From: Syntrophaceae bacterium
GTDB taxonomy: Bacteria; Desulfobacterota; Syntrophia; Syntrophales; Smithellaceae
DNA length: 64,000 nucleotides
Assembly: GCA_003142535.1 (NCBI GenBank)
Contig: PLMQ01000018.1
Location: forward strand, 25,573 to 89,572
Direction of reading: 5' to 3'
The translations under genes and the position numbers were made by a program. Below, piece by piece: positions 9,201 through 56,422 of the stretch; positions within the stretch are counted from its first letter, which is position 1; each line of letters opens with the position of its first letter. Under the pieces are notes generated by a model, which worked only from the letters and a program-made list of their open reading frames with translations, made no database searches and was not told where the DNA came from.

Positions 9201-10370
9201 TTGCGTACGGCCGAGCGTCTCACGAACATACCGCCATATTTGTTCATGGAGTTAAGAAAAAAAATCAACAAAGCCAAAGCCGACGGTGTTGATGTTATTT
9301 CGCTCGCTATCGGTGATCCAGTGGAAGCAACGCCGGATTCGATCATTGACGAGCTTTGCGCGACAGCGCGCGATTCCATGAACCACCGTTACCCGACAGA
9401 CGAGGAAAAGGGTATGCTTGCTTTTCGCAAGGAAATAGCCTGCTGGTATCAGGAAAGATATGGCGTCAGCCTCAATCCCGAAAATGAAATTCTGGGACTT
9501 ATCGGCTCGAAAGAAGGCTGCCATCATTTTATTCTGGCGCGGGTCAACACCGGCGATACAGTTTTAATGACCGATCCCGGTTATCCGGCCTACCGCGCGA
9601 GCATCCTGATGGGTGGCGGCGATCCGTATAATGTTCCCATTCTGCCGCAAAATAATTATCTGCCGGTATTCGAAGACATCCCGGCGGATGTCGCCAAAAA
9701 AGCAACCGCTATGTTCCTTAATTATCCGAACAATCCGACCGGTGCCTGCGCGACTTTGGAGTTTTTAAATAAACTTGTTGATTTTGCCCGTAATTATGAC
9801 ATTGCAATTTGTTACGATAATCCCTACAGCGAAATAGTCTTCGCCGGTCAGGAGCGAGTCAGTTTTCTGATGGCGCAAGGCGCAAAAGATGTCGGCATCG
9901 AACTTAATTCCTTATCCAAGCCTTTCAACATGTGCGGGTGGCGGCTGGGCATGGCTTGCGGCAATCCCGAATTGATTGCCGCCATCAGCAAAGTTAAAGA
10001 AAACACGGATTCGGGAATTTTTAATCCGATCCAGTTCGCCGGTATTAAGGCGTTGCAGAAAGAAGCGCCGTTTATTGAAAAAATGCTGGCTTTGTACGGA
10101 AAACGTCGCGAGCTGGTGCTCCAAACATTGAAAAAAATCGGCATTGATTTCAATCCGCCGCGGGGAACGTTTTACCTGTGGGTGCCCGTACCCAAGGGGA
10201 TGACATCGCTGGATTTCACCAACCGCCTGTTCGATAAAACATCCGTAGTTGTTGCTTCCGGCGTGGCTTACGGCAAATATGGCGAGGGTTTTGTGCGCAT
10301 ATCGCTGACTGTTTCCGATAAAAGGCTGGAAGAGGCGATGAAACGAATAGAAAAGGAATTCACACAGTAG
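9201..10370 (+). CDS. dapL: class I aminotransferase, probably LL-diaminopimelate aminotransferase
   Basis: TTG start behind CAGGAGG. The N-terminus is LTNIPPYLFMELRKKI..ISLAIGDP and it carries the PLP-lysine motif SLSKPF. It is adjacent to dapF. Confidence 0.7.
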   Translation: MRTAERLTNIPPYLFMELRKKINKAKADGVDVISLAIGDPVEATPDSIIDELCATARDSMNHRYPTDEEKGMLAFRKEIACWYQERYGVSLNPENEILGLIGSKEGCHHFILARVNTGDTVLMTDPGYPAYRASILMGGGDPYNVPILPQNNYLPVFEDIPADVAKKATAMFLNYPNNPTGACATLEFLNKLVDFARNYDIAICYDNPYSEIVFAGQERVSFLMAQGAKDVGIELNSLSKPFNMCGWRLGMACGNPELIAAISKVKENTDSGIFNPIQFAGIKALQKEAPFIEKMLALYGKRRELVLQTLKKIGIDFNPPRGTFYLWVPVPKGMTSLDFTNRLFDKTSVVVASGVAYGKYGEGFVRISLTVSDKRLEEAMKRIEKEFTQ

Positions 10371-10488
10371 CTTTTGTATCCTTCGTATAACTTTGTTGGC
10401 AGCTGCGCAGTCATCCTCGACGTATTATAATATACGCCTGCGGAGCCTGCTCGCCGCCGCCGCGTTCTACTTTGGATACAAAAGCTAC
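10367..10488. repeat. family-2 hairpin element, copy G (level-1 form)
   Basis: Perfect 15-bp inverted ends (GTAGCTTTTGTATCC / GGATACAAAAGCTAC) enclose AACTTTGTTGGCAGCTGCG plus an inner hairpin module. It lies between dapL and ychF. The ORF-track extension 10393-10509 reads through it. Confidence 0.7.
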
Positions 10489-10509
10489 TATAGAGAAAGA
10501 TTATTAATT

Positions 10510-12528: not shown

Positions 12529-13638
12529 TCAAGAAAATTTATCGATGAATTTCCGCATTATTTTACTGCCCATTGACTCTCGAGAGTGTAAAGCTGCGTA
12601 GGGACAAACTTCGATACAGCAATAGCAGCGAATGCATTTTGTATAGTTAAATTCGATATTATGCGCCAGCGGCCCTATGGCCTGTGCCGGGCAAATTGTC
12701 CAGCATTTGCCGCAAAGTTCACACAAGTTATCATCGCATACGGGTAAAGAAAGAGTGTGTTTGCGCAGAAAGTTGTGCAGAAAACGCGGTCCGAACACAA
12801 TTGCCTGCCTGCCCGGTAACTGAAAATTGTCGAAGATAGGCAGAACGCCATCGATTTCATAATCAGGGATTAAATTGTTTTCCGTAGCGGCTTTCAGGAT
12901 TGGTGCTTTATCAGGGTTTATGCCGAGCATTTTACAGACAGCCGTATCCAGAGCGAAAGAATCACAACTCCCCATAAGAACTCCGATTTTTCTGGGTTTT
13001 CCTCTTTTACCCGGCCCTTCGCCTTCCAAACCGAGAATGGCATCTAATATGGAGACTGTTGGTTTAACCGCCTGGTGGATGGCGATAAGCAGCCGGGCAA
13101 AACCAATTGTGTCCACTCCGGCGCGCATGTGCCAGTGCGATTTTTCAAAGCCGACAATGCAACCGAACATATTTTTTACGCTCAACGTCAACAGCATCTG
13201 GCTGTGGGTTTTCAGCTTCGGCAGGTTGATAATAACATCTGCTTCTACCGCATCTCGCGCAATATCAATGTTGCCATAAGGTTTGCCGATGCCCACTTTG
13301 ACTGTATTTTTAAAAGGCCGGCAGGCAACATCAAGGTCGGCCAGAGCTTCTTTGATGCCATTAACTTTCGCGATACGATCAAAAGAACCGATTGCTGGAG
13401 AATCAGATACCTGAGGCCTTGCTCCTTTGTGTAAAACATATTCCACCGCGGCTCGAATAACAAGCGGATGAGTAAGAACCGCATCTTCCGGTTTTGCCGC
13501 CGACAGCATATTGGGTTTAATAAGTACCTTGTCGCCGAACTTTATTTTATTGCTGGCTAAAGTTTCGATGATTTCAAAAAAAGCAGCTCTCAGCTCTTCA
13601 TAATTATAAGAAACATTGCGGATTATTACGCAGGCCAT
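12529..13638 (-). CDS. DUF362-family iron-sulfur protein with 2x[4Fe-4S] ferredoxin domain
   Basis: 369 aa with C-terminal CxxCxxCxxxCP motifs (CELCGKCWTICP and CIRCYCCIEVCP). Confidence 0.65.
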   Translation of the reverse strand: MACVIIRNVSYNYEELRAAFFEIIETLASNKIKFGDKVLIKPNMLSAAKPEDAVLTHPLVIRAAVEYVLHKGARPQVSDSPAIGSFDRIAKVNGIKEALADLDVACRPFKNTVKVGIGKPYGNIDIARDAVEADVIINLPKLKTHSQMLLTLSVKNMFGCIVGFEKSHWHMRAGVDTIGFARLLIAIHQAVKPTVSILDAILGLEGEGPGKRGKPRKIGVLMGSCDSFALDTAVCKMLGINPDKAPILKAATENNLIPDYEIDGVLPIFDNFQLPGRQAIVFGPRFLHNFLRKHTLSLPVCDDNLCELCGKCWTICPAQAIGPLAHNIEFNYTKCIRCYCCIEVCPYAALHSRESMGSKIMRKFIDKFS

Positions 13639-13891
13639 ATTGTGATAAACTTTCTTAAAGAAAAACAGTTAAATTAATCTTGCTGAAAAGTCACATACCA
13701 TAACCCATATTTACCTGACAAGAATTATCCAATTAATTACAGAGCTTCCTGCCTATGGCTTGGCAATGTTGCGATTATTTTTTGCTGCCAATTTTTCTTG
13801 ACACTCTATTGGACTTCTCTTATGCTTAACTTAAAGGAAGTTACAACCGATATAGAAAAACAATGGAAAGGATAAACGGCATAATTACTTA

Positions 13892-14145
13892 TTCGTGAAA
13901 CTCCAATTCCGAAAGCGAAGCTCGGCAGGGAACCCCGGCGCATGCCTGGGGATGCTGGTCGAAGCGTATCAGAATTGGGAAGTTGTAATGAGACCCAAAC
14001 TTCAGAAACAAAGTGCATAACCTAAAGGTCACAAGCTGAAGTTGGTTGGTCGAATTATCCCGCGAAGCGGAGAGTATAATCCCCCGCAGCGGGTTTAGGA
14101 ATCGGTTTCCAAAGCTTGCTTTGGGGATTATACCCGTGATTAAAG
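13892..14145 (+). repeat. family-1 hairpin-module array, locus A (3 modules, two with loop insertions)
   Basis: Starts TTCGTGAAACTCCAATT and ends CCCGTGATTAAAG. Module stems are CCAATTCCGA/…CAGAATTGG, AAACTTCAG/CTGAAGTT and TATAATCCCC/GGGGATTATA. The TAACCTAAAGGTCACA insert is at 14018-14033. Confidence 0.8.
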
Positions 14146-14206
14146 CGCTACAAATGTAATTATTCTGGTAAAATGTAAGTACATCTGTATTTCATATAGC
14201 AGGAAA

Positions 14207-16429
14207 ATGAGGGTGAATATGGATATAAAACAGAAAATTTTGGATACACTTCTCATTTTGAACACAGCCATCAAGAATGAGCGTCTTTATCCGCCTACCA
14301 GTTCGATCATTATCCACACAATAGAAAGACTTCATCAATCCTTGCTGGAAATTTTAACGCAGATAGATTCTTTAATTCTGGCCGAATCGGAAAAAAACAT
14401 CCTCATCTGCGGGGAGCCGCTAAATGCAAAAGAGCAGGAAAAACTACAGGTAACTGCATTTCTCAATATTCTTCTTAACTTTGGAATTAAAAGCATAACT
14501 TTTGAAAAAGGCCTGGAGAAAGAAGAGCTCCTTGCTTTCATTGATATTCTTTCTCGAAAACCGGCCGACCTGGCTGGTGAAAATGCTTTTGCGCAAATCA
14601 TGGCGGAAAAAAATGTAAAACATATTCTTTTGGATAAAAAAATTTATGTGGTTTTGAACAAAGATCAACAAATTATATCGGGGCTTGGTTTAAGTATTAC
14701 TGATGACCAGATTATGAAATTTGTTCAACATGTGCATCCTGATTTGGCTCCTGATCTTCAGAAGCTTCAGGAACTTGCCAAGGATCCGGAATGGCTGATG
14801 CTTACCTTTAAGGCCGGCTTATCTGAAGCCATGGCGCAAAAGGGGATTCTGACGAATGTTCAGCTTTCGCAAGGCCTGATAAATATGATGTCCCTCCTGG
14901 ATAAGGTGGCAGGCCCTCTGGAAAAAAATGATCAGGATAAGTTATCGCAGCGGATGGGCAAATCCATTGCTGATATAGACCCTGATGTGGCGGCTCAGGT
15001 GATGTCTCAAAATATCGAACATCTTTTCGGCGGCATGCTGATGCAGTATATTGCCAGTGAATTGGCCGGGCTGAAAGCCGTTGGTTTACGGACATCAGGA
15101 ACCGGCGGCCCAGGTGCAGGTGGTGGCGCAGGTAATGGTGCAGGCGGTGGTGGTGCGGGCTCAGTCTCAGGTGAAGGGGGGGTGCCGGGACAGTCCATTG
15201 ATGTTAAGGAAACCCTGAGTATGTTGCTGAAAGATGACAAAAAGGCATTGCTGGACGAATCTTTGCTGATGTCGCTGCCGAAAATTATTGAACAGCTCAT
15301 AGCTCAAAAGCAGCAGGAAACAATAGAAGCAGTTATTGACCGTTTGATGGACAATCTGGCTAGCGATAATATTGAAGTGCGCTCTCGGGCAGCGAAATCA
15401 CTGGTCGAGATTATAGAGCAAATTCCCGCCGAACAGAAAACCGAACTTATCGCGAATATAAATGACAAATTAATTGACTGGGTAAAATTGGAAACACTAG
15501 CCACTCCGGCCTATGAGAAAATATGCAGTATTCTGCAATCAGTTGCACAAGATGCAATTCGCCAGAGACAATTTGCGCGGGCAATACCAATCCTGAATGT
15601 TTTTAACGACATTCGCTCCGACGCTCTGGACAAAAATGACACAATTCATGAAATATCCAAAGATTTTATTCGCGTGCTGGCAACCGAAGAACAGCTTGCC
15701 TTTCTCTTCAGTGAATTTAACGTAAGTGAACACGAAAAGCAGTTGGAAGTGGGCGAGATATTAGTGAGGCTGGGCGATGTGGCCCTGAACCGTTTACTGG
15801 ATATACTTCGGGAAACCAAAGATAGTGATGAACGTGTCCGTATTATGCGCATGATTATCGGTATCGGGCCGATAACCATCCCCCTGATCAGGGAGCGGAT
15901 CAATAAAAGCGTGTCCTGGTTTTATTTGCGTAATCTGGCCTACATTTTGGGGCATATCGGCAATGAAGCCAGTGCAATTGCACTGAAACCGCTGCTGCTG
16001 CATGAAAACAGCAAGGTTCGGCAGGAGGCACTGAAAAGCATTTATCGGAAAGGGGGAGATCAGAGGAGCAAGGTGCTCTTGTCTGTTCTTCCGGACGCAG
16101 CTGATGAATTCAAAATTAATATTGTGGAGACGCTCGGTAATATGAAAAGTGCCGATGCGGTTGCCGATCTTCTGGATATGCTCAAGACCAAGCCGGTAAG
16201 ATCAAAATCGTTGCTATCCAGCCTGGAAGAAAAAATCTGTATTGCTCTGGGTTCCATCCGGTCTCCCGAGGCGATACCCGCCCTTACCGAAATTGCTGAG
16301 TCGAAATCATTTTTGCGCATCCGGTCTTATCCCGCCAATGTCCGCAATGCCGCCACAAATGCGGTAAACTCCATCAGGAAGAAACAGGCTGAGGCTAAAA
16401 AAGATAATGCCGGCACTTCCGCAAAGTAA
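14207..16429 (+). CDS. HEAT/armadillo-repeat protein with internal Gly-rich linker
   Basis: 740 aa. The C-terminal half has HEAT-like repeats (VRSRAAKSLVEI, VRQEALKSI, AIPALTEIA). The linker is GTGGPGAGGGAGNGAGGGGAG. The ATG at 14219, behind GAGG, is the more likely start. Confidence 0.65.
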   Translation: MRVNMDIKQKILDTLLILNTAIKNERLYPPTSSIIIHTIERLHQSLLEILTQIDSLILAESEKNILICGEPLNAKEQEKLQVTAFLNILLNFGIKSITFEKGLEKEELLAFIDILSRKPADLAGENAFAQIMAEKNVKHILLDKKIYVVLNKDQQIISGLGLSITDDQIMKFVQHVHPDLAPDLQKLQELAKDPEWLMLTFKAGLSEAMAQKGILTNVQLSQGLINMMSLLDKVAGPLEKNDQDKLSQRMGKSIADIDPDVAAQVMSQNIEHLFGGMLMQYIASELAGLKAVGLRTSGTGGPGAGGGAGNGAGGGGAGSVSGEGGVPGQSIDVKETLSMLLKDDKKALLDESLLMSLPKIIEQLIAQKQQETIEAVIDRLMDNLASDNIEVRSRAAKSLVEIIEQIPAEQKTELIANINDKLIDWVKLETLATPAYEKICSILQSVAQDAIRQRQFARAIPILNVFNDIRSDALDKNDTIHEISKDFIRVLATEEQLAFLFSEFNVSEHEKQLEVGEILVRLGDVALNRLLDILRETKDSDERVRIMRMIIGIGPITIPLIRERINKSVSWFYLRNLAYILGHIGNEASAIALKPLLLHENSKVRQEALKSIYRKGGDQRSKVLLSVLPDAADEFKINIVETLGNMKSADAVADLLDMLKTKPVRSKSLLSSLEEKICIALGSIRSPEAIPALTEIAESKSFLRIRSYPANVRNAATNAVNSIRKKQAEAKKDNAGTSAK

Positions 16430-16514
16430 AAAAGTTTAAGCTGCGCGAGGTTTCCTGAAATTACCGAAGCGAGAATGACGTAATCAACTTGCTGCAATCC
16501 TTCCTTGCCGGAGA

Positions 16515-16745
16515 AAATCACGGATACTATATCCCTGCTTATACGGGATAATTCGGCTAACAAACTTCAATTCGCTTCGCTTTTGAAGTTTGAGTCTCAT
16601 TATCCTCCGCTTCGCGGGATAGTTCAACTTATCAATTCCGACGCGCTTTGCTTTCGGAATTGGAGTTTCACGACCACCGCTTACGCGGGATTGTTCAACT
16701 TGCCAATTTCAATGCACTGCGTTATTGAAATTGGAGTTTCACGAA
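16515..16745 (-). repeat. family-1 hairpin-module array, locus B1 (3 tandem modules)
   Basis: Three units of about 72 nt. Each has a small CCGC-N3-GCGG hairpin, then GGATARTTCRAC, a long variable-stem hairpin, and AGTYTCAY. The array ends in GTTTCACGAA. The ORF 16505..16864 is a read-through artefact. Confidence 0.8.
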
Positions 16746-17010
16746 TAAAAAAATACAGCAAAGCAGGCTGCCGCTTCTTCTCTTCAGAAATTACATTTTT
16801 TGAAGTAACGATGCGGGATATATCGATTAAGTATGAGAGTAAAGATAAAAAATCCCGGCTGTAACTATTAAGGATTACAATCGGTCTGTTTCAGGAAGTG
16901 GAGGCGGCAAACCAATGATAGCAAGTAAGGCCGGGCCGCTAGTTATTTATAAAAAATGTCAGCATTTTCGTTTGCATAAACATTTGAACTGGAATAAATA
17001 GAAATAATAT

Positions 17011-17110
17011 TTAATCCCGCTGTACGGGGCTGTGCGGGATTGTTCAACTTGCCAATTTCAACTTGTGACCTTTAGGTTATGCACTGCGTTATTGAAATTG
17101 GAGTTTCACA
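17011..17110 (-). repeat. family-1 hairpin module, locus B2 (copy of the last B1 module plus an 18-nt loop insert)
   Basis: 17034-17061 and 17080-17109 are identical to 16685-16712 and 16713-16742. The extra CTTGTGACCTTTAGGTTA lies at 17062-17079. The module ends 35 nt upstream of mobB. Confidence 0.85.
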
Positions 17111-17141
17111 AATGAAATAATGGTAATAAGAGAATTAATAT

Positions 17142-17636
17142 ATGGCAATACCAATTATTTCCGTCGTAGGTAAATCCAATGCCGGCAAAACAACTCTGCT
17201 GGAAAAGTTGATTCCCGAACTGGTGAAGAGGGGATACCGCGTGGGAACTATTAAACATAATGTCCACGGATTCGAGATTGACCATGAAGGGAAGGACAGC
17301 TGGCGGCATAAAAAAGCAGGTACCCATTTGACTGTAATTTCATCTCCTGTTTGTTTAGCATTAATTGAAGATGTAGATAAAGATCACTCTTTGGAGGAAA
17401 TCAGAGAAAAATACATGAAAAATATCGATATAATCCTTTCCGAAGGATATAAGGGCAATCCTTTCCCCAAGATTGAAGTTTTTCGTTTGGAATTAAAACG
17501 AGAACTACTATGCCGCAAAGAAGACAATTTATTAGCTATTGCCTCTGATGTAAAAATAAACGCAGGTGTTCCCTGTTTGGATATAAATGATGCCGCAGGT
17601 ATTGTTGATTTAATCGAAAAAGAATTTCTTAAATGA
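17142..17636 (+). CDS. mobB: molybdopterin-guanine dinucleotide biosynthesis adapter MobB
   Basis: Contains IISVVGKSNAGKTTLLEKLI (P-loop) and GTIKHNVHGFEIDHEGKDSWRH. Confidence 0.85.
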   Translation: MAIPIISVVGKSNAGKTTLLEKLIPELVKRGYRVGTIKHNVHGFEIDHEGKDSWRHKKAGTHLTVISSPVCLALIEDVDKDHSLEEIREKYMKNIDIILSEGYKGNPFPKIEVFRLELKRELLCRKEDNLLAIASDVKINAGVPCLDINDAAGIVDLIEKEFLK

Positions 17637-21873: not shown

Positions 21874-22123
21874 CTTTAATCACGGGTATTATATCCCTGC
21901 TTATACGGGATAAATCGGCTAACCAATTCCGATGCACTTCGTTTCGGAATTTGAGTCTCATTGCCCTCCGCTTCGCGGGATAATTATATTGCCCCGCTTA
22001 GCTTTGCATGCGGGATTAATTCAACTTGCAGATATTACTACCCTGCGCTTGTAATATCTGAGTTTCATTAATTCAACTTACCAATTTCCCTACACTACGT
22101 TATGGAAATTTGAGTTTCACGAA
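21874..22123 (-). repeat. family-1 hairpin-module array, locus C (4-5 modules)
   Basis: Starts CTTTAATCACGGGTAT, the reverse complement of the end of locus A. Ends GAGTTTCACGAA, the reverse complement of the start of locus A. It begins 10 nt upstream of the start codon of the 1397-aa gene. Confidence 0.8.
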
Positions 22124-22175
22124 TGAAGGGACTTTGCTCCTAAATGGCACCAGTAAAAATGCAGTTATTGTTCTG

Positions 22176-26567: not shown

Positions 26568-27623
26568 CTATTTTTTATTGTATAATATCCTGTCAATAAT
26601 GTGCTTAAGCGCAGGAGGAAATAACCTCTTAATTCTGTGCTTAAGCACAGAGGGAATTGAAGAAATTAACCGTCTTTTTCCGCCTCTCTTGAGCCAATTC
26701 CCCTCTCTTTTCGTGGCCAAATAATTATTACAAGTAGCACAAGGAATATCATCTCTCGTTCCTTGTCTACCCATAAGCATATCTCTGGCGTAATTAATCT
26801 TTTCATTATTGAGACATTCAAAAAGACCATCGGTAAAGACATTCCCACCAAAATCTCCCCAAAAGTTTTCAGAACACCCCAGCACTTTTCCGTCCCAGTT
26901 TATTTGTGGTTGTTCCCACAATTCATGGCAGGTTCCCTGCATATAGGAGTCTACCCCATATTTTTCTTTGTATTCTTTCCATGAAATAGCACCATGTTCT
27001 TTTCTGATGGCTTCTCGCTTCCGGACAGGTGAAAATTCAGCATCCCATGATAGTTTCGAGTAGAAATACATATTAAGTTCGTCAGCCAAATTTCTTGCTG
27101 TTGGCAATTCATGCTCGTTGTGTCCAAAGATTACGAACTGCCATGACAACAAGGGATATTTTGACTGATACTGCTGCTTGAAAAAATTTATCTTCTTTAT
27201 GTTTTCAATTACTACATCATAGTTTCCGTTGATTCGATACCGTTTATAAGTTTCATTAGTTACACCATCTATAGAAACAGTCATAGTTCGAAACTTGTAT
27301 TTAACTAATCCCTCCAACACTTCTTTATCGACATTATTAAGATTTACACCATTATTAGCAGTTAAAACAACTCTCCGCTCATATGCGTACTTCATAATTT
27401 CCAATAGATCAGGATTTAGAAATATCTCGCCAAAGTTAGAAAGTTCGATTTCTGTAATCCATGGATTTTCATCAAGAAGCTTTTGAAAATCGCTCAACCG
27501 AAGGAAACCACTTCCTACAATTGGTAAGATCGCTTTACTGGCATTCGGACAAGAATAACACCTCAGCTGACATACTGATGATGCTTCGAGTCTAATCTTT
27601 TTATGTCTTATTTGCTTTGACAT
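26568..27623 (-). CDS. radical SAM protein with C-terminal Cys-rich (SPASM/twitch-like) extension
   Basis: CxxxCxxC motif (CQLRCYSC) near the N-terminus, and downstream Cys residues (CHELW...GCSENFWG...CATC). Confidence 0.7.
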   Translation of the reverse strand: MSKQIRHKKIRLEASSVCQLRCYSCPNASKAILPIVGSGFLRLSDFQKLLDENPWITEIELSNFGEIFLNPDLLEIMKYAYERRVVLTANNGVNLNNVDKEVLEGLVKYKFRTMTVSIDGVTNETYKRYRINGNYDVVIENIKKINFFKQQYQSKYPLLSWQFVIFGHNEHELPTARNLADELNMYFYSKLSWDAEFSPVRKREAIRKEHGAISWKEYKEKYGVDSYMQGTCHELWEQPQINWDGKVLGCSENFWGDFGGNVFTDGLFECLNNEKINYARDMLMGRQGTRDDIPCATCNNYLATKREGNWLKRGGKRRLISSIPSVLKHRIKRLFPPALKHIIDRILYNKK

Positions 27624-35640: not shown

Positions 35641-35850
35641 TAATGAGACTCCAATTTCAAAAGCGTAGCGAATTAAAATTGGTTAGTCGAATTATCCCGC
35701 ATAAGCGGCGGTAATGAGACTCCAATTTCAAAAGCGTAGCGAATAACCTAATAACCTAAAGGTTACGCGAGGTCACAAATTAAAATTGGTTAGTCGAATT
35801 ATCCCGCGTAAGCGGTGGTAGTGAGACTCCAATTCCAAAAGCAAAGCGAA
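35641..35850 (+). repeat. family-1 hairpin-module array, locus D (2 full modules plus a third truncated in its loop)
   Basis: The unit TAATGAGACTCCAATTTCAAAAGCGTAGCGAATTAAAATTGGTTAGTCGAATTATCCCGCATAAGCGGCGG is repeated. Unit 2 has a 36-nt loop insert at 35744-35779. Unit 3 stops after ..GCAAAGCGAA, where the first attC-like site begins. Confidence 0.85.
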
Positions 35851-35911
35851 TAACGAAAAAATCAGCGGGAGGCGGGCGTAGCCTGCCGATCCGCTGTATT
35901 GTCTGGTTATG
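35849..35911 (-). repeat. attC-like site 1
   Basis: Sequence is ATAACGAAAAAATCAGCGGG-AGGCGGGCGTAGCCTGCCGA-TCCGCTGTATTGTCTGGTTAT, with outer AAC...GTT boxes. It is 3' of hicA. Confidence 0.55.
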
Positions 35912-35934
35912 CCAATTCTTTAATTATATGCTTT

Positions 35935-36081
35935 TCAAAGGTGTTCATCTATTTCATCATGTCTTGGAACGGGCTGCTTTTTACCTGTTTTAGGATTAAT
36001 ATAAAGATCGTGACGGCCGCCGTGCCTTACAAACTCGCAGCCGAAGGAAGTGATTTTCTTAATAAGTTCTTTTCTCTTCAT
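35935..36081 (-). CDS. hicA: HicA-family mRNA interferase toxin (48 aa, below the ORF-track cutoff)
   Basis: Hand translation gives MKRKELIKKITSFGCEFVRHGGRHDLYINPKTGKKQPVPRHDEIDEHL. The ATG overlaps the hicB stop (ATGA). Confidence 0.7.
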   Translation of the reverse strand: MKRKELIKKITSFGCEFVRHGGRHDLYINPKTGKKQPVPRHDEIDEHL

Positions 36082-36275
36082 AGATTGAAAGCAAGTTCTC
36101 TAACATTATGATTTTCAGGAACATCTTCCATAGTCATGAGCATGTAGGCATCTTTCATATTCTCTTCAAGCTCTTCAAGAGTTTCACCCTGGGTCATTAT
36201 TTCTGGATGTTCAAACAATTTGCCTATCCAAAATTTTTCGCCCTTCCAATAAATCATTTTCAGTTTTGTTTCCAT
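36078..36275 (-). CDS. hicB: HicB-family antitoxin (UPF0150-like)
   Basis: METKLKMIYWKGEKFWIGKLFEHPEIMTQGETLEELEENMKDAY, starting at an ATG behind AGGAGG. The track's longer ORF (to 36359) runs into attC-like site 2. Confidence 0.65.
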   Translation of the reverse strand: METKLKMIYWKGEKFWIGKLFEHPEIMTQGETLEELEENMKDAYMLMTMEDVPENHNVRELAFNL

Positions 36276-36355
36276 ATTCTTACCTCCTGACAACAACTTT
36301 TGATAATAATACCATAAAAATTGAAAATTTTCCGTTTTATATTGCTGGTTTTCAG

Positions 36356-36413
36356 GCATAACGAAAAAATCAGCCGGAGCGTAGCGATTGGCTATATTGA
36401 TTTTGAGGTTATC
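36356..36413 (-). repeat. attC-like site 2
   Basis: Sequence is CATAACGAAAAAATCAGCCGG-AGCGTAGCGAT-TGGCTATATTGATTTTGAGGTTATC. The vapC stop codon (36409-36411) lies inside the outer box. Unpaired bases are on one arm only. Confidence 0.6.
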
Positions 36414-36777
36414 TTTTTTTTATGTATTTTATGCACAGGTTATCTGCAGCTTGCGCCAGTTTCTTATCTTGTGTCCAGATAGGAACACCTGTCAATACAG
36501 CGGATGTAATAAGGTGGACATCAACATAGCCCAACCCTTTTCCCATTAAACGGTTATTTTCTATAAATGACAATACTTCGTCATGTTCGGCTTCGATGCA
36601 CATCGGCAGCAATTGCAAAAACGAAAGGATGATTGCTCTGTCTTTGAGATTCCCGCAGGCAAGTTCGCCTGCAATCAATGGGTGGCATAGTACCCGTCCA
36701 TCATTGAGCAGGTTTGCAAGATCAGCATTTCCATCCCTCAAATGTGAAACCCAAACCGATGTATCCACAAGAACCAT
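36409..36777 (-). CDS. vapC: PIN-domain toxin VapC
   Basis: MVLVDTSVWVSHLR... carries the conserved acidic residues of a PIN domain. It lies 3 nt downstream of vapB. Confidence 0.8.
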   Translation of the reverse strand: MVLVDTSVWVSHLRDGNADLANLLNDGRVLCHPLIAGELACGNLKDRAIILSFLQLLPMCIEAEHDEVLSFIENNRLMGKGLGYVDVHLITSAVLTGVPIWTQDKKLAQAADNLCIKYIKKR

Positions 36778-36780
36778 TTC

Positions 36781-36975
36781 CTATACCGCTCCTTTTCTTC
36801 TCGGTATCGCTTTCAACTGCTTTTGAGTCCCACCGAGCCTTGCAAGCCTCTTGCCACTTTCTCTGGCAATAAGAGCCTCAAGTCCAAGCTTAACGAGGGC
36901 GGTCTTTTCCTTGATTCCAGTCATTTTGGATGCTTTGGCCAGCAGGTTATCTTCGATATTCAAAGTTGTTCTCAT
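36781..36975 (-). CDS. vapB: VapB-type antitoxin
   Basis: 64 aa (MRTTLNIEDNLLAKASKMTGIKEKTALVKLGLEALIARES), upstream of the PIN toxin. Confidence 0.75.
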   Translation of the reverse strand: MRTTLNIEDNLLAKASKMTGIKEKTALVKLGLEALIARESGKRLARLGGTQKQLKAIPRRKGAV

Positions 36976-37043
36976 AGCTTCATCTCATACAATTAGTATG
37001 CCTGAGTATGTATCATCTATGCATATCTGTCAAGTCATTCTTA

Positions 37044-37096
37044 GCTAACGATAAAATCGCCCGGAGCATAGCGATCGGGTGTATTGACTGGTTAAT
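37044..37096 (-). repeat. attC-like site 3
   Basis: Sequence is CTAACGATAAAATCGCCCGG-AGCATAGCGAT-CGGGTGTATTGACTGGTTAA. Confidence 0.55.
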
Positions 37097-37118
37097 AATT
37101 TTATTAAATATTTTAATA

Positions 37119-37673
37119 TCACTTTATTTTATCAAGCCACTTCTTAATGGAAAGAAAAAATTTCATAAAGACATTCGACCCTATCGTCATTAATACTATT
37201 GTGTCGCGTGTAGATGAAGATGATATTTTGTTTTGAGAGAAATTAAAATCAGATTTACCCATTGATATTGCAAAACATTTACCTATGGCAAAAATAAGTT
37301 CATCCCAATCCGATGTTTTTCCCGTAATTGTATTTTGATATGTAGCGATTTCGTTGTTGACCGATTCCCATATACTGTCATTATTCGGTCGAATCATCAT
37401 GCTTGCTCTAATTATCTTGCTAAAAGAAACAAGAATTTCATCTTTCTTCTGTGCGTCGCCTGACCATAAGGTAAAAGCATAAATACAAGTAAATAGTTTT
37501 AATGCGTAAATATGAAATCGCAATTCAGTTTCTACGTTTGGATCAATTTGTTCAATTTCATAATTTTCTTTGTAAGATTGAATAGAAGAATTTGCCTCCT
37601 TATCCATAATACACAGAAAATACAAATGTTCGGCAATTTGATCTGGTGTATATTTTGTTTTGAAAATAGTCAT
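37119..37673 (-). CDS. cassette-encoded hypothetical protein (184 aa)
   Basis: The ORF is bounded by attC-like sites 3 and 4. The start is set at MTIFKTKY because the track's start (37703) lies inside site 4. No motif was recognised. Confidence 0.5.
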   Translation of the reverse strand: MTIFKTKYTPDQIAEHLYFLCIMDKEANSSIQSYKENYEIEQIDPNVETELRFHIYALKLFTCIYAFTLWSGDAQKKDEILVSFSKIIRASMMIRPNNDSIWESVNNEIATYQNTITGKTSDWDELIFAIGKCFAISMGKSDFNFSQNKISSSSTRDTIVLMTIGSNVFMKFFLSIKKWLDKIK

Positions 37674-37686
37674 GAAATTGCTCCAT

Positions 37687-37740
37687 ATTAACGAAAAAAT
37701 CACCCGGAGCGTAACGATCGGGTGTATTGACCTTGTTATA
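37687..37740 (-). repeat. attC-like site 4
   Basis: Sequence is TTAACGAAAAAATCACCCGG-AGCGTAACGAT-CGGGTGTATTGACCTTGTTAT. Confidence 0.55.
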
Positions 37741-37745
37741 GAATT

Positions 37746-38729
37746 TTATTGATTGTGATTCCAAGCATTCATAATATCTCGTGCCCTATCTTTGCTGAAA
37801 CCTTGACCAATAGCTTCATCAAGATGCCTATTTATGTCTGCTTCATTTGGTCTGAAATTTGGTGCCATAGACCTACTAAGTAATCCAAATCCGGAAATTG
37901 TATCTAAATCTTCGGAAAGTAAGGTAGGCACTTCTTCTACCGGAAGGATTGGTGTATCTTTTCTTTTACTTTGTGCCATATATTGATTTCTCTCTACTCT
38001 AGATAATGACATAGCTTGGTCAAGCAGTTCTTTCCCGTCAGGCATTATTTTATTCATATATTCAATCATTTTTTTCTCGGTGTCTTCCAATAAAAGTATT
38101 ACATCTTGAATGTTTCCACCTATCGATGCGCCTTGCTCCAACACTGCTTGGACTTTTTGCAGGGCGGTTGAATCCTTTAGAGTGGATAAAGGGATTTTGT
38201 CTTCGGAAATTTCTAATTCAGCGCCTAGGTTTTTTGCAGCTTTAATAAATCTATCTTGATCAAGTTTATCTTTTTCCCTAGCTTCTTCTATATCTTTTTT
38301 TGATATAGGTCGCCTCTCTGGTGGAAATAAGACGTTTTTATATCTTCGCTGAAGATGCCGCTCAAAACAACCAGGATATTCACTCCATATTATCATTTCA
38401 CCATTTTCAAAAAATGCATCCTCGGGATGAATATATGCGCCGTATTTATTTATAATTTCTTTTTTCATGTTATCTATTACCGCAATGTATCTTTGATCTC
38501 CACCATGCTCCGCTTTTGATTCTTCAAGATTTTTTAAAAATATAGGGATAGATAATCTACCACCTTCTTGAGACAATCGTGCTATCTCTTTATCTATTTC
38601 TTTCATTTGTTCTGCAGTTAGATCTTTTATCTTTTCAGGGGAGAATTGAGGAGCGCCTTTTTTACGGCTGTAGATAACATAACCAATAAAGATGAATACC
38701 AAAACAAGTATTATCCAAGACATAAGCAA
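37746..38729 (-). CDS. cassette-encoded hypothetical protein (327 aa, N-terminal TM anchor)
   Basis: MLMSWIILVLVFIFIGYVIY forms a TM helix, followed by a charged helical soluble domain. No motif was recognised. Confidence 0.55.
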   Translation of the reverse strand: MLMSWIILVLVFIFIGYVIYSRKKGAPQFSPEKIKDLTAEQMKEIDKEIARLSQEGGRLSIPIFLKNLEESKAEHGGDQRYIAVIDNMKKEIINKYGAYIHPEDAFFENGEMIIWSEYPGCFERHLQRRYKNVLFPPERRPISKKDIEEAREKDKLDQDRFIKAAKNLGAELEISEDKIPLSTLKDSTALQKVQAVLEQGASIGGNIQDVILLLEDTEKKMIEYMNKIMPDGKELLDQAMSLSRVERNQYMAQSKRKDTPILPVEEVPTLLSEDLDTISGFGLLSRSMAPNFRPNEADINRHLDEAIGQGFSKDRARDIMNAWNHNQ

Positions 38730-38751
38730 TCACCTCTTTATTCATTTATCC

Positions 38752-38815
38752 TATAACGAAGAAATCAGCCGGAGCGTAAGCGATCGGCTGGATTGAAAGG
38801 CGAAAAATGTTCTTG
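38752..38815 (-). repeat. attC-like site 5 (most divergent outer arm)
   Basis: Sequence is ATAACGAAGAAATCAGCCGG-AGCGTAAGCGAT-CGGCTGGATTGAAAGGCGAAAAATGTTCTTG. Confidence 0.5.
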
Positions 38816-38894
38816 CAATCACCTTTTTCCGTCAAGGGGATATTTTTGCTCTTGACAAGATGAGGCCTTATAGGGGTTAGGTTTTGATTTTCCT

Positions 38895-39467
38895 TTACTT
38901 ATTCGGCATCGTTGTCTTTTTAATAGTATTGTCATTTGCAGTGTATGTTTCGATCAGCGATTTGTATAATTTTGTATCAGCAAATTTTAAGCCAAGGCAA
39001 AACATGAAAAAAAGTATCAAAACTAAGGACCAAAAATAATATGCAGGAACATGATCTCGAAGCCATTTGAGAGTAATTTTTTCTGGATAGTCTATTGCCT
39101 TTTTTTCTGGCACTATGATTTCTTTTTTGGGGGTACAAACATCGGGATTTCTCTTCAGCCAAGTAACAACGGAGTCCAAAACGGAAATAATGTTTTGAAC
39201 GCTTGTTATAGACGGCGACTGGTAATAATTAGAAATTCCTTCATTGAATATTTGATTTATAAGACTAGAATATTTATTTGTTCCAATAGTATCATTAAGC
39301 AGATCAATTATTTCTATAACAAACGTGCGAAAGCGGGGATCGTCTTGTGGGTTAATATGGTGATGGTGGATCATGTCAGAACTTGTTGGTGGTGTAAACC
39401 GAGCCATTATAGCGCTAAGTTCATTGCGGTATCGCTCAAGCTCTTGCAGAATATTTTCAGTTGTCAT
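38895..39467 (-). CDS. hypothetical protein (190 aa, C-terminal TM), probable first cassette
   Basis: The ORF is followed by attC-like site 5. It has a C-terminal TM (YYFWSLVLILFFMFCLGLKF) and a HHHH run. GTTAAAC (minus strand, 39469-39475) lies just 5' of the ATG. Confidence 0.5.
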   Translation of the reverse strand: MTTENILQELERYRNELSAIMARFTPPTSSDMIHHHHINPQDDPRFRTFVIEIIDLLNDTIGTNKYSSLINQIFNEGISNYYQSPSITSVQNIISVLDSVVTWLKRNPDVCTPKKEIIVPEKKAIDYPEKITLKWLRDHVPAYYFWSLVLILFFMFCLGLKFADTKLYKSLIETYTANDNTIKKTTMPNK

Positions 39468-39793
39468 AGTTTAACCTAACAATTAATATACCAACTTAGT
39501 ATTTTCCGATATTTCGTGCAAGTATAAGCTTTTGAAAAATAAAATGCAAATGTATATATTCCTTTAAAATCAATGGGGAATAGAATACTGTTGCTTAGCT
39601 TTTTGTGGTAATATGGAGTAACCCCAATAAAGGCAAATTGGGATAATTTATGGATAATTTGGCAAAAACTTATAATAATGTCCTTCCTGGTTCCAAAAAT
39701 TTCTTCTGGAGCCTGAGGGGTCATATCTGTATTTGACCTTGGACAATATGCTCAACTTGCGATATCCGTCTAGCCAGTGCCTTACTATCAAAT

Positions 39794-39828
39794 AAAAAAG
39801 GCGGCGCTGATGAGCGTCGCCTTTTTCT
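39794..39828 (-). terminator. bidirectional rho-independent terminator
   Basis: AAAAAAGGCGGCGCTgatgAGCGTCGCCTTTTT is a GC-rich stem with A/T runs on both sides, 3' of the zinc-ribbon gene. Confidence 0.7.
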
Positions 39829-39847
39829 GTTAGAATAATTGTAGCAA

Positions 39848-40147
39848 TTAATCTTCTTTACTGCTTTTAGCCTTTTCAGCTTTTTTGGTTGTTTCCGCAG
39901 GTTTAGTTTCAACAGTTGTGGACGCGCTTTCGGATTCCTTTTTTTCTACTGTTGTTGACGGTACTTTTTTTCCGCCGTAGTCTGTTGCGTACCATCCTGA
40001 GCCTTTCAGGCTGAAAGACGATAAGGAAAGAAGCTTCTGCACTTTACCTTTACAGAACTTGCAGCTTTTTAATTCCGGATCGGTAATTCCCTGAAACTCT
40101 TCAAATTGCTTGCCGCATTTCCGGCATTTGTATTCGTAAATTGGCAT
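39848..40147 (-). CDS. FmdB-family zinc-ribbon protein with Lys/Thr/Glu-rich tail
   Basis: MPIYEYKCRKCGKQFEEFQ...CKFCKG, starting at the ATG behind GGAGG. Confidence 0.75.
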   Translation of the reverse strand: MPIYEYKCRKCGKQFEEFQGITDPELKSCKFCKGKVQKLLSLSSFSLKGSGWYATDYGGKKVPSTTVEKKESESASTTVETKPAETTKKAEKAKSSKED

Positions 40148-40191
40148 AACTAAAAACCTCCCCAATACCATTGAAACCGAAACGGTATCAA

Positions 40192-40752
40192 TTAAATCGC
40201 GGATATTTCATACCCGCCGCTGAAGCAGTCCAGCACCAGTTCCAAATCATGATAACTGGCTGGCTGCAGCGCCGATTTTGTTAAATTATGGACAATATTT
40301 TCTTCTTCAGCTTTTTCGTCCGCCGAAGCGTTAAAGTCTATGTCTCCATTGCCGAAGCGCAAAACGTGAATTAATTCATGCACGGCAATGTAGAGCATCA
40401 AGGGGCTGAATTTAATGAAAGAATTCGCCCTCTCCACCGCATCCAGAATTATGTTGTCCTGCAGGCAGATTCTGTAAAAATCGAAAACACCCTTATCATT
40501 TTCAGCTAACCCGCCCGGTTTTTCATAACTGTACTTACACAGGTGGGCAAATGCGCTGTCTTTTATTTCATGTTGTTCCAAATATGCAAGTGTTTTTACA
40601 TCATACTTATTTTTTTTGAACTGGTTTTCTCCTATTCTAAAATGGCCAAAAACCAGCTTCTCCGCATCGCTGAATGCCTTACTTGCTACCGGCAACTGAG
40701 CTGCATTAAAATAGCGCACCATAAATCCACCGTAAATATTCGTTTTGTTCAC
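40192..40752 (-). CDS. hypothetical protein with HExxH motif (possible zinc metallopeptidase-like)
   Basis: 186 aa with HELIH at the expected spacing in a helical context. No further family was recognised. Confidence 0.4.
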   Translation of the reverse strand: MNKTNIYGGFMVRYFNAAQLPVASKAFSDAEKLVFGHFRIGENQFKKNKYDVKTLAYLEQHEIKDSAFAHLCKYSYEKPGGLAENDKGVFDFYRICLQDNIILDAVERANSFIKFSPLMLYIAVHELIHVLRFGNGDIDFNASADEKAEEENIVHNLTKSALQPASYHDLELVLDCFSGGYEISAI

Positions 40753-40900
40753 TAGTAATATATGTATTTGAGCTTACGAAGTCAAGATTGGTAAAGTTTT
40801 ATAACAGGGAGGGAAAGGAAAAGTAAATTGATTTGACATCATGGTTTCTGTTAGCGTATATCTAACCAATATTATGCAGTAATATTTTAAGGGAGCCGCG

Positions 40901-46060: not shown

Positions 46061-46207
46061 ATACCATTTCGCCTTTCTTTGGCTAACTTTGTTGGCTGCG
46101 TCGTCGGCTTCCTCAGCGTATGTACTAACGCGTGACCTTTAGGTTATACGCCTCCGGCGCCTCCTCCTAGCCGCCTCGTTATCCTTTGAAAGCAAAACGG
46201 AATTACC
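46061..46207. repeat. family-2 hairpin element, copy E (level-2 form: backbone + 75-nt insert + mini-insert)
   Basis: The backbone is identical to copy H (CTTTGGCTAACTTTGTTGGCTGCGTCG ... TTATCCTTTGAAAGC). It is interrupted at 46104-46178, and the insert carries GTGACCTTTAGGTTA at 46132-46146. Confidence 0.8.
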
Positions 46208-54182: not shown

Positions 54183-56237
54183 TTAAAACTCAAAGGAAAG
54201 TCCTCCTTTGAAAGTAATCCCCGGCATAGGATAGTAAGTGTTGTCGCTGTAAGGAGCTCCATACATGCCAAAAGATGAATATTTCACATTGGCCAGATTT
54301 TCCACACCAAAGAAAGCAGTCATTTTGACCTTCTCAATAGGTGGTTTATAAGAAAGATAAATATTGAGAAGAGTGTAACTATCTAGCTTTTCACCAACGT
54401 TATCGAAGTCCTGCGACAGAAAGGAATCCCCCACATAGCGCACTTCAGGACGTAACATCAGGTTATAGGGTAGATAAATCTCCAAACCTAAAGTTGCCAT
54501 CCGGTTGGGTACAAGCCACAGCTCCTTTTTATTGTAGGCACCGTTCTCATAAGTGGCTTTATGATAAGTGAAATTACCATACAGCAGGGCTTGTTTTTCC
54601 CACAAGTAGGAAAGGGAAACCTCTGCACCATCATGGCGTGTATTTCCGGTATTTTGATTATAACCCGTCGGGAAAAACCCCACATACTGGATTTCATCCT
54701 CCATATCGATCCTGAACAGGGTCAGTCCTATTTTCAAGTTATTCAGCGGATAGAATTCCATGCCCGCTTCGGTACTGATACCTTTTTCTTTTTCAAGGCT
54801 CTTTAAAAATCCTCCACCGGCGCCATTAAAGGAAGCTACTTCATCGAGAAAAGGAATACGGTAGATGGTACTGTATTTTGCGAAGACCTTCGATTTTTTG
54901 CCCACAAGCCAGGTCAGCCCTGCTTCATATGCTTCGGCATTGTATGTTTTATCCTGATCTGTAAAGCTGTTGGCCGGAGTCACAAAATCCAGATTGGAGC
55001 CCCTGATCGACGCCCGTTCCAGGCGATAACCGGCGCTGAAAATAAGATTTTTCAGAATGCTGAATTCGTCGCGAATATAGCCTCCCAGGCTCTCCCGCGT
55101 AAAATCCGCCATACTTGATTTACTGGTTCTCTCCTGATCACTGTAAAAATATTTCCTGTAGGGTTCGTTATAATAATCAACACCCAAAATCACTTTATTG
55201 TTGAACCCGAAGATTTCTTTAGTCAGAACATACTTTGGCGTAATGCCGTATGTATCCGCGCTCGTGTCGGCAAAGAGAAACCACGATGGCATATTCACCC
55301 CGAGGTCTTTTTTGCCATACAGAAAATTGATTTCGAGTTGTCCCCATGATCCGAAGAATGATTTGATCCCCAGATTAACATTGGTATATTTATCAGAACC
55401 GTCATCGTTCGAATGGGCAGGAGACCAGGGACCACCAGCCGGCTGATATTGGCGCCGATCCTGCTCCATTTGTAGCTTAGTTAAAGCGCCCGGCATTTGA
55501 TAATCAGTTTTAATAAAAGAGACGCCCAGCGAAACGCTAAGCAAATCACTGGCTGTATATCCCAGATCAAAACCGCCGCTCTGCGCCGAATATTTCGAGC
55601 GCTCCCGATAGCCGAAGTTAAAATTATTTTCTCCGTTTGCAGCGTAAGTCCATTTTTCAGTGGCTCCGGTTACGCTAACCCGTTCGTCATTAAGGCCATA
55701 ACTTCCGACAATGGCGGACGCGTTAAACTGCGGTTGGGCCTTGCCTTTCTTGGTGATGATATTAATAACACCGCCGATCGCGGCATCACCGTAAAGAACA
55801 CTTTCCGGACCCCGGACGACTTCAATCCTTTCGATATTATTGACCGGTATCTGCAGCCAGTTGATGGAAGACATATCCGTCCGGTTCAGGCGGCGTCCAT
55901 CCAGCAAAATCAGGGCTTTCCCGTAAGGGTTATCTCCACCCATACCACGCATATCGACGTAGGCTTGGGAGGTATTGCCGCTGGATGTGCGGAATTGGAT
56001 ACTTTCCAGATTATCCAGAACATCAACTACTGTTGTTGCGCCGGATTTGCTGATATCATCTGCCGTGATAATGGTAACATTAGCAGGAGTTTTACGCGTT
56101 TCCTGCTTGTCACGCGTGGCAGTTACAACTATTTCGCCCATTGTTACAGCAGTGTTGTCATCACTTTTATTTTGAGCTTGTGCCTCTGAAAAATTTGCTA
56201 CAGAAAACAACAGAATTAAAAGAAATACTTTCTTCAT
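54183..56237 (-). CDS. TonB-dependent outer-membrane receptor (BtuB-like, B12-riboswitch controlled)
   Basis: Signal peptide (MKKVFLLILLFSVANFSEAQA), TonB box/plug (GEIVVTATR) and terminal ..GLSFEF. The start is set at 56237 behind AAGGAG, because the track's 27-aa extension overlaps the riboswitch. Confidence 0.85.
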   Translation of the reverse strand: MKKVFLLILLFSVANFSEAQAQNKSDDNTAVTMGEIVVTATRDKQETRKTPANVTIITADDISKSGATTVVDVLDNLESIQFRTSSGNTSQAYVDMRGMGGDNPYGKALILLDGRRLNRTDMSSINWLQIPVNNIERIEVVRGPESVLYGDAAIGGVINIITKKGKAQPQFNASAIVGSYGLNDERVSVTGATEKWTYAANGENNFNFGYRERSKYSAQSGGFDLGYTASDLLSVSLGVSFIKTDYQMPGALTKLQMEQDRRQYQPAGGPWSPAHSNDDGSDKYTNVNLGIKSFFGSWGQLEINFLYGKKDLGVNMPSWFLFADTSADTYGITPKYVLTKEIFGFNNKVILGVDYYNEPYRKYFYSDQERTSKSSMADFTRESLGGYIRDEFSILKNLIFSAGYRLERASIRGSNLDFVTPANSFTDQDKTYNAEAYEAGLTWLVGKKSKVFAKYSTIYRIPFLDEVASFNGAGGGFLKSLEKEKGISTEAGMEFYPLNNLKIGLTLFRIDMEDEIQYVGFFPTGYNQNTGNTRHDGAEVSLSYLWEKQALLYGNFTYHKATYENGAYNKKELWLVPNRMATLGLEIYLPYNLMLRPEVRYVGDSFLSQDFDNVGEKLDSYTLLNIYLSYKPPIEKVKMTAFFGVENLANVKYSSFGMYGAPYSDNTYYPMPGITFKGGLSFEF

Positions 56238-56279
56238 GGTTCTTCTCCTTTCCCCCTCGGGATTAAAGTAAGTTGAACC

Positions 56280-56420
56280 GCCATAAAGTCTCCTGGCTTG
56301 CGGCAGCCTACTTTCCACGCCTTCCCAATGCTCTTGGCATCAGTGGCAAAATGTGGATTTCGTTCCGCTTACAGGTGCGGGGCAGCGCCGGCTTTTTACC
56401 GGCTTCCTCTCTTGGCAGTT
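56280..56420 (-). promoter_or_regulatory. cobalamin (B12) riboswitch
   Basis: The minus strand reads ..AGAGGAAGCCGGTAAAAAGCCGGCGCTGCCCCGCACCTGTAAGCGG..GCCACTG..GGGAAGGCG..AAGCCAGGAGAC. This includes the conserved GGAAGCCGGT core and the B12 box (AGCCAGGAGAC, 56288-56298). Confidence 0.8.
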
Positions 56421-56422
56421 CT

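Follow-up and report, generated by a model that had tools for sequence, protein, structure and literature searches.

An 18-base hairpin insert of Smithellaceae, apparently among the smallest mobile DNA elements in bacteria

Very small mobile repeats have, to our knowledge, a single earlier description, from cyanobacteria in 2008, and how they move has yet to be explained. These small dispersed repeats (SDR1–8) of Nostoc punctiforme and related cyanobacteria, reportedly the subject of Elhai et al. (2008, Genome Res 18:1484), are said to be 21–27 nucleotides (nt) long, to be inserted precisely in other repeats and in their own copies, and to form a conserved hairpin with compensatory changes. 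A further account describes SDR5 as inserted precisely inside HIP1 (PMC4390886). The REP and REPIN elements are mobilised by RAYT (HUH Y1) transposases (PMC3116915, PMC3733652, PMC6006769). We examined a 64,000-nt stretch of contig PLMQ01000018.1 (positions 25,573 to 89,572, forward strand; assembly GCA_003142535.1) from a Syntrophaceae bacterium of the family Smithellaceae, referred to below as the window, in which an earlier note had pointed out a motif of 16–18 nt that recurs in the loops of larger hairpin repeats. The placement of the window in Smithellaceae is confirmed by YchF, whose nearest homologues bearing names are labelled Smithella or Smithellaceae. We regard it as fairly probable that this motif is a very small non-autonomous mobile insertion made up of a variable leader and an invariant 15-nt core; the 18-base snippet would apparently be among the smallest mobile DNA elements in bacteria. 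This reading is favoured by precise 18-nt filled/empty pairs among paralogues and orthologues, by self-nesting, and by identical cores in unrelated or diverged hosts.

The core was taken as the 15-nt sequence GTGACCTTTAGGTTA, and matches in the window were counted up to 2 mismatches on both strands. Exact matches were found at 14018–14032 (−; site A), 17065–17079 (+; site B2) and 46132–46146 (+; site E), a 1-mismatch match at 35752–35766 (−; site D) and a 2-mismatch match at 63564–63578 (+; site F), which confirms the locations first given for the motif. All five copies lie between open reading frames (ORFs). The expectation by chance was 0.07 matches vs. the 5 seen, and 5 matches were reached in 0/100 dinucleotide-preserving shuffles. 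Contigs encoding identical proteins were taken from several JGI, ENA and Logan assemblies, where no Logan contig spans a site; the B2 insert was present in 8 independently assembled contigs (6 JGI, 2 ENA), excluding an assembly artefact at this site, and the inserts at E and D were present in 4/4 and 2/2 of the contigs spanning them. Long-read metagenome-assembled genomes (MAGs) of many species also carry the inserts. Chance similarity, or an assembly or sequencing artefact, has on this evidence a negligible probability as an account of the motif, the inserts reading identically in the JGI and ENA assemblies, and for the window sites it was already refuted; what speaks for chance is a minority of genome matches in unrelated taxa without a hairpin context. 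Site F, a diverged copy reading CTGACTTTTAGGTTA outside any host hairpin, may be a decayed copy, or it may be a chance match (about 0.1 expected at 2 mismatches).

Sites A, B2 and D lie in hairpins of family 1, a 71-nt unit that is frequently tandem (13893–14063, −; 16543–17109, +; 21905–22127, +; 35641–35860, −) and has the layout GCGGGAT-WRTTCRAC-..-CCAAyTTnnn-(12-nt loop)-nnnAArTTGG-AGTyTCAy, followed by a CCGC-TTAY-GCGG linker. The 10-bp apical stems of family 1 vary among units yet stay complementary, i.e., they covary (CCAATTTCAA/TTGAAATTGG, CAAACTTCAG/CTGAAGTTTG, CAGATATTAC/GTAATATCTG), and the empty 12-nt loop reads T-N-C-R-C-T-N-C-G-Y-T-T. Locus B includes a tandem array of these units (16543–16742, +), and its empty unit B1 (16685–16742, +) is a paralogue of the filled unit B2 (17034–17109, +): their 28-nt and 30-nt flanks are 100% identical, and the sole difference between them, as claimed before, is the precise 18-nt indel CTTGTGACCTTTAGGTTA at 17062–17079 (+). 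This B2 insert, CTT+GTGACCTTTAGGTTA, separates the 5' stem arm from the 12-nt loop TGCACTGCGTTA. At site A the 18-nt insert, again CTT+core, occupies the position seen in B2 within a diverged family-1 hairpin (13986–14063); the earlier note was right that the motif is there, but its limits (14018–14033) were too narrow and the 18-nt insert runs from 14018 to 14035 (−). The inserts at A and B2 are identical at 18/18 positions vs. about 69% (40/58 positions) for their host flanks, and the probability of 18/18 identity at that divergence is 0.69^18, or ~0.001. Judged from these alignments, the insert may be younger than its host, or it may be more tightly constrained.

Site E lies in family 2, a longer imperfect palindrome with the apex ..CGTA-(7–8-nt loop)-TACGCC.. 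and copies at 10370–10490 (+) and 46073–46203. Here the insert, CGC+core (18 nt, 46129–46146, +), comes last in the apical loop, after its 8 nt and directly ahead of the TACGCC arm, and the loop reads TGTACTAA + CGCGTGACCTTTAGGTTA; the copy at 10370–10490 is empty, with an 8-nt loop (gacgta-TTATAATA-tacgcc). As the earlier note held, the motif occurs in both hairpin families and in both orientations relative to the window. Site D (35744–35779, −), previously taken for an expanded variant, is actually a nested pair of 18-nt copies. On the minus strand it reads TTTGTGACCT-(CGCGTAACCTTTAGGTTA)-TTAGGTTA, and removal of the 18 nt in parentheses restores an exact TTT+GTGACCTTTAGGTTA; At D, therefore, one unit has entered the TTTA loop of another between its T7 and T8. 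The outer copy, TTT+GTGACCT|TTAGGTTA, occupies 35770–35779 plus 35744–35751, and the inner copy, CGC+GTAACCTTTAGGTTA, occupies 35752–35769, giving a family-1 loop of 48 nt (12+18+18); the neighbouring unit at 35641–35700 is empty.

The lengths of family-1 loops were quantised: 12 nt (n=50), 30 nt (n=7), 32 nt (n=9), 34 nt (n=2) and 48 nt (site D of the window), the filled classes corresponding to 12+18, 12+20, 12+22 and 12+36. Ahead of the core the leader is in most cases C-N-N (3 nt), and leaders reading CTATA (5 nt) and CGGTGAC (7 nt) also occur. Inserts of the 18-nt class (C-N-N + core) are placed before position 1 of the family-1 loop, and those of the 20-nt class (CTATA + core) are placed after position 5, before TTCGY. 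A further paralogous 18-nt indel, CGTGTGACCTTCAGGTTA, distinguishes L038 from L086 and L105. Nested stacks occur in L049, L080, L114, L119, L058 and L096, where the left (GTGACC) and right (AGGTTA) halves are always equal in number; insertion into a copy's TTTA loop gives the order left-left-right-right, and the middle copy in L114 carries a matched compensatory change (GTGCCC...GGGTA).

Filled and empty states were also found between related genomes. Flanked by the aminotransferase gene and ychF, the family-2 element at 10370–10490 of the window has an empty apex (gacgta-TTATAATA-tacgcc), as does its orthologue in Smithella contig L145 (gacgta-TTATCATA-tacgtc); the orthologue in Syntrophaceae UBA6255 (L054; gacgta-TTTTCATA-CGCGTGACCTTTAGGTTA-tacgcc) is filled, and the genes flanking it there are about 77% identical to those of the window. 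In a second orthologous pair, CTATAGTGCCCTTTAGGGTA is found in L144 and nothing at the orthologous place in L147. The comparison of orthologous repeats proposed beforehand yielded presence and absence of the unit between related genomes, but no such difference within the source species. No target-site duplication was seen at the B1/B2 or the window/L054 junctions.

A different origin might be sought in a larger element: the motif would then be the footprint left when such an element was excised from a loop, or the core of an att-like recombination site. Family-1 loops do take larger inserts (38 nt at 13922–13959, 16 nt in L092 and about 60 nt in L079/L096), and the GTGACC and GGTTA halves are separable by inserted DNA. 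Yet in all cases examined the DNA between the halves consisted of further copies of the same unit; no GTGACC...AGGTTA pair was found 16–120 nt apart in the window, and no larger element bounded by the halves was found there. The motif halves do not border the larger loop inserts, and these carry 5–6-nt direct duplications, which the mini-insert lacks; no integrase or transposase adjoins the window sites. We consider a footprint or att-like core very unlikely.

On the strand reading GTGACC, the core folds with T2–A15, G3·T14, A4–T13, C5–G12 and C6–G11 paired, i.e., a 5-bp stem closed by a TTTA loop (TGACC-TTTA-GGTTA). The mini-hairpin AACCT-AA-AGGT proposed before would require an impossible 2-nt loop, and the variants support the fold given here: across 18 distinct variants in credible contexts 97.8% of cells were paired, a value reached by 3/500 shuffles. 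The stem changes were A4–T13 to C–G (4 variants), G3·T14 to A–T (3 variants) or to G–C (2 variants), A4 to G giving G·T, and C6 to T giving T·G; the remaining core variation is mostly within the loop. The wobble pairs exist on the GTGACC strand only, which implies that the relevant form is single-stranded.

Insert orientation follows the local strand and not the host repeat. Family-1 inserts were in one orientation in 22/22 cases; family-2 apexes, which are symmetric, carry the insert in either host orientation, always directly 5' of TACG on the strand bearing GTGACC. The next base after the insert was T at 96/113 distinct sites (85%), commonly within T-N-C-R-C, a signal to which family-1 loops contribute a large share, and the junction was often A|T. 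The first base of the leader (position −3) was C at 68 of the 113 sites. The relation of the leader dinucleotide to the downstream target, by pairing or by duplication, was marginal (p = 0.045 and 0.098).

When viral contigs were scanned as a trial, 22 matches to the motif were obtained; 6 of these were tRNA-Met(CAU) genes, and several others lay in loops of unrelated GC-rich hairpins. The insert could accordingly be pictured as a piece of a tRNA that was captured: many phage and bacterial tRNA-Met(CAU) genes carry, from anticodon loop to T-stem, the exact reverse complement of the motif, (CA)TAACCTAAAGGTCAC; the six genes (L012, L023, L025, L026, L027, L031) carry the identical 15-mer, and at sites A and B2 the identity grows to 17 nt, CATAACCTAAAGGTCAC. 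The only tRNA(CAU) gene in the fetched Syntrophales-labelled loci, however, reads CATAACCGGTAGGTCCC, unlike the motif; the extra CA belongs to the host loop, being present in B1 without an insert; and the variants covary as a self-contained hairpin, which the tRNA segment is not. A tRNA-Met fragment as main origin is highly improbable and was rejected; since the Syntrophales-labelled tRNA(CAU) differs, the likeness is probably coincidence.

A collection of species-representative genomes was then scanned with GTGACCTTTAGGTTANNB, a pattern that excludes the tRNAs, and gave at least 111 stretches. Of 111 matches listed, 88 came from genomes labelled Smithella, Smithellaceae, Syntrophaceae, delta-proteobacterium or Thermodesulfobacteriota, and these 88 represent about 42 species-level genomes. 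A few contigs with odd labels, such as L080 (Woesearchaeota) and L102 (Verrucomicrobiota), are probably mis-binned, as their flanks are family-1 or GTAG-hairpin; some matches in unrelated taxa without a hairpin context look like chance. Among the matches listed, family-1 loops were the largest context class, and family-2 apexes were also hosts. The other hosts were GTAG-tagged hairpins (GTAGGGAACGGT-unit-TCGCG-ACCGTTCCCTAC), which are of the REP type as defined in PMC3733652, a TATCCC..GGGGATA hairpin family, and many unique GC-rich hairpins, e.g., ACCCGGC-A(unit)TAC-GCCGGGT. Tandem arrays in which the unit recurs every 18 nt occur in L090, L065 and L036.

Tests of apical-loop position based on minimum free energy were discarded because the mini-hairpin extends into the flanks and 2–3-bp helices form within the loops; arm-based and enclosing-helix tests with ORF-free controls were used instead. 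Flanking complementary arms of at least 8 bp were found at 40% of 114 sites vs. 5.5% of 3000 ORF-free controls from the same loci (Fisher p = 7e-26). When the 18 nt were deleted, 50% of sites vs. 15% of controls had their junction no more than 20 nt from the top of an enclosing helix of at least 8 bp (p = 1e-16). Only 16/114 sites were inside an ORF of at least 100 amino acids. Roughly half to 60% of the sites in relatives lie in clear hairpin loops; the exceptions to apical loops include an insert in the internal loop of a long hairpin (L144), some arrays, and some copies without a hairpin. The loop association is strong, not absolute. The earlier note had held that the motif occurs always and only in apical loops, which holds for 4/5 window copies, but not for site F, for the internal loop of L144, for the arrays or for the hairpin-free copies.

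The conservation of the core suggests another explanation, in which it is a functional protein- or RNA-binding module on hairpin loops, spread by gene conversion and kept by selection. In its favour, the 15-mer is unchanged in about 42 species among the matches listed, the near-palindrome TAACCT-AA-AGGTYA would suit a dimeric DNA binder, the copies are fixed within the source species, and the weak tracking of the downstream loop by the leader dinucleotide (permutation p = 0.045) is as expected if flanks were co-converted. Gene conversion, however, requires homology in the flanks, and the hosts of the unit are unrelated to one another (family-1, family-2, GTAG REP-like and unique GC-rich hairpins). 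Moreover, the unit occurs inside its own loop, and a binding site would hardly be expected in tandem or nested copies; G·T pairs are tolerated on one strand only, which points to a single-stranded form; and there is no orientation preference relative to genes. A binding module would also leave the spread of the sequence unexplained. We consider it unlikely. Of the three options put forward at the outset, the minimal mobile hairpin is thus favoured, the recombination footprint is weakened and the protein-binding site is less favoured.

What the data show is that a discrete unit has been inserted precisely, strand-specifically and independently of its host into unpaired loops, its own among them. 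If the unit is mobile, the target, and probably the element too, would be handled as single-stranded nucleic acid, which could be a DNA hairpin extruded in replication or repair, or RNA. Insertion would be the work of an enzyme acting in trans, from a gene elsewhere in Smithellaceae genomes. Propagation might be restricted to copies whose core is intact, under selection for insertion competence, which would explain why the 15-mer is identical in about 42 species despite flanking genes that are only ~77% identical. The variable leader may reflect imprecise processing at one end. As speculation, the enzyme would most plausibly be an HUH/RAYT-like nuclease-ligase acting on single-stranded DNA hairpins, a candidate suggested by the GTAG REP-like hairpins in several of the fetched loci and by the fact that enzymes of the HUH/RAYT type act on single-stranded hairpins (PMC6006769, PMC3479197). 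An RNA route like that proposed for the cyanobacterial elements is a possible alternative.

Several observations weigh against mobility of the unit. The genome sample of at least 111 stretches was chosen by exact matches, and unselected neighbouring Smithellaceae loci (81 kb) had only one variant copy, which indicates that copy number differs widely among species. The covariation rests essentially on one pair and possibly represents a single subfamily event. Orientation bias would be expected of a lagging-strand, IS200/IS605-type single-stranded-DNA transposon, and was seen neither with the direction of adjacent genes (29:29) nor with local GC skew (42:47), both of which are weak proxies. Presence/absence polymorphism was not seen within the species: every contig spanning A, B2, D or E was filled, and any recent activity in the source lineage is thus hypothetical. 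For any single filled/empty pair, precise deletion may have occurred instead of insertion. Finally, no mobilising gene was found among the window ORFs scanned, which had housekeeping functions or no Pfam match; the Pfam scan of 20 window ORFs gave no transposase, HUH, reverse transcriptase or integrase, and no RAYT gene was present among the window ORFs examined.

A bolder version, which we put forward tentatively and hold to be possible but doubtful, is that the 18-nt sequence is the smallest mobile element described in bacteria, moved by an enzyme activity new to science, which would read the 5-bp hairpin and join it into any exposed single-stranded loop 5' of a T. If true, transposition would here take a form different from the IS200/IS605, RAYT, integron and retroelement mechanisms, and the cyanobacterial SDRs would be a second, independent instance of a general phenomenon. 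The differences in copy number across dozens of Smithellaceae genomes offer correlation with gene content as a route to the enzyme. The loops of REP-like hairpins must be single-stranded in vivo often enough to serve as landing pads, which bears on the evolution of these repeats. In practice, the quantised 18-nt indels could mark strains or species, and they cause contig breaks in short-read assemblies.

Additional features of the unit and of its hosts were observed. Arrays of 18-nt units (GTGACCTTTAGGTTA-CGN) are found at 2471–2521 of L090 and at the ends of L036, L065 and L122; where an array runs up to a contig end, assembly may have shortened it. In a Desulfobacula MAG (L131), arrays of diverged units give a hint that the host range is wider. 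The exact 15-mer was also seen in terminator-like or GC-rich hairpin loops of L044 (Cognaticolwellia), L046 (Acutalibacteraceae), the phage-labelled contigs L014, L018, L021 and L028, and L015; these occurrences in unrelated bacteria and phage-labelled contigs may represent chance, horizontal spread or a wider phenomenon. Family-1 units are abundant across Smithellaceae genomes. In the window another family-1 loop insert, the 38-nt GC-rich hairpin tcggcagggaaccccggcgcatgcctggggatgctggt, lies at 13922–13959 in the host unit 13893–13985 (−), bordered by a direct duplication of CGAAGC (13916–13921 and 13960–13965). Further family-1 loop inserts in relatives are 16 nt with a 5-nt duplication (L092) and about 60 nt (L079, L096); with such varied inserts, family-1 loops look like general landing pads. 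A short form of family 2 at 63234–63289 is without the central ~75 nt (GGCTGCGTCGT|TATCCTTTGAAAGC), and the family-2 central hairpin may itself be an insert within a smaller repeat.

No Rfam family covers the host hairpins or the insert, with nothing credible at E ≤ 5 over 13600–17200; above the Rfam gathering score, the window contained a cobalamin riboswitch and one tRNA and nothing else. The riboswitch (56268–56450, −; 92 bits), upstream of a TonB-dependent receptor gene (54183–56318, −), is ordinary. The region 35850–40800 is AT-rich (GC 0.36–0.37) and has five copies of a 26–47-nt repeat (ATAACGAAAAAATCAGCCGGAGCGTAGCGAT...), each just past a small ORF; its content includes genes of the HicA-toxin and PIN-domain kinds and several ORFs without a Pfam match, and it looks like a cluster of toxin-antitoxin-type cassettes with a common terminator-like repeat. 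Two tandem copies of the 36-nt unit AATATCCTGTCAATAATGTGCTTAAGCGCAGGAGGA, with 78% identity, lie at 26584–26655 near the end of a radical-SAM gene region.

Among described systems, the BIME-1/RIP elements of E. coli consist of two inverted REPs joined by a linker that contains an IHF site. The mini-insert is likewise a short specific motif at the apex between inverted arms; unlike that linker, which is a fixed part of a composite, it is separable, occurs in unrelated hairpins and is self-nested. It resembles REP and REPIN elements as a short, intergenic, non-coding hairpin repeat, presumably handled as single-stranded DNA by a trans enzyme present once per genome. REPs are GC-rich imperfect palindromes of 20–40 bp tagged with 5' GTAG/CGTC, whereas the mini-insert is untagged, with a 5-bp AT-rich stem including a G·T pair; unlike REPINs, it is not found in inverted doublets, and it sits inside REP-like loops, the GTAG hairpins being its hosts. 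Like IS200/IS605 elements and PATEs (PMC6006769), it has no target duplication, may prefer a short neighbouring sequence, and is hairpin-dependent and strand-specific; those elements, however, have two subterminal hairpins, at least ~100 nt and a strong replication-strand bias, whereas the mini-insert has one 5-bp hairpin and 18 nt. MITEs have terminal inverted repeats and target-site duplications and measure 50–500 bp; the mini-insert measures 18 nt and makes no duplication. By defining features, the mini-insert is not a REP, a REPIN, a MITE or an IS200/IS605 miniature.

In the literature, nothing was found on such repeats in Smithella or Syntrophus, and the element is apparently undescribed in these Smithella-family syntrophs. 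Going by the hallmarks as described, the closest known system would be the Nostoc small dispersed repeats. The mini-insert differs from these in its 18-nt unit and 15-nt core (vs. 21–27 nt), in its occurrence in Syntrophales/Thermodesulfobacteriota and not in a cyanobacterial subgroup, in its targets, which are loops of hairpin repeats including GTAG REP-like ones and not heptamer arrays or HIP1, and in its variable 3–7-nt leader. Like the SDRs, it measures tens of nt, is non-coding, inserts precisely in repeats and in itself, forms a mini-hairpin and belongs to one coherent lineage; compensatory changes in the hairpin, as in SDRs, were found with modest support. A second, unrelated lineage with the same hallmarks would mean that the phenomenon is not a cyanobacterial oddity.

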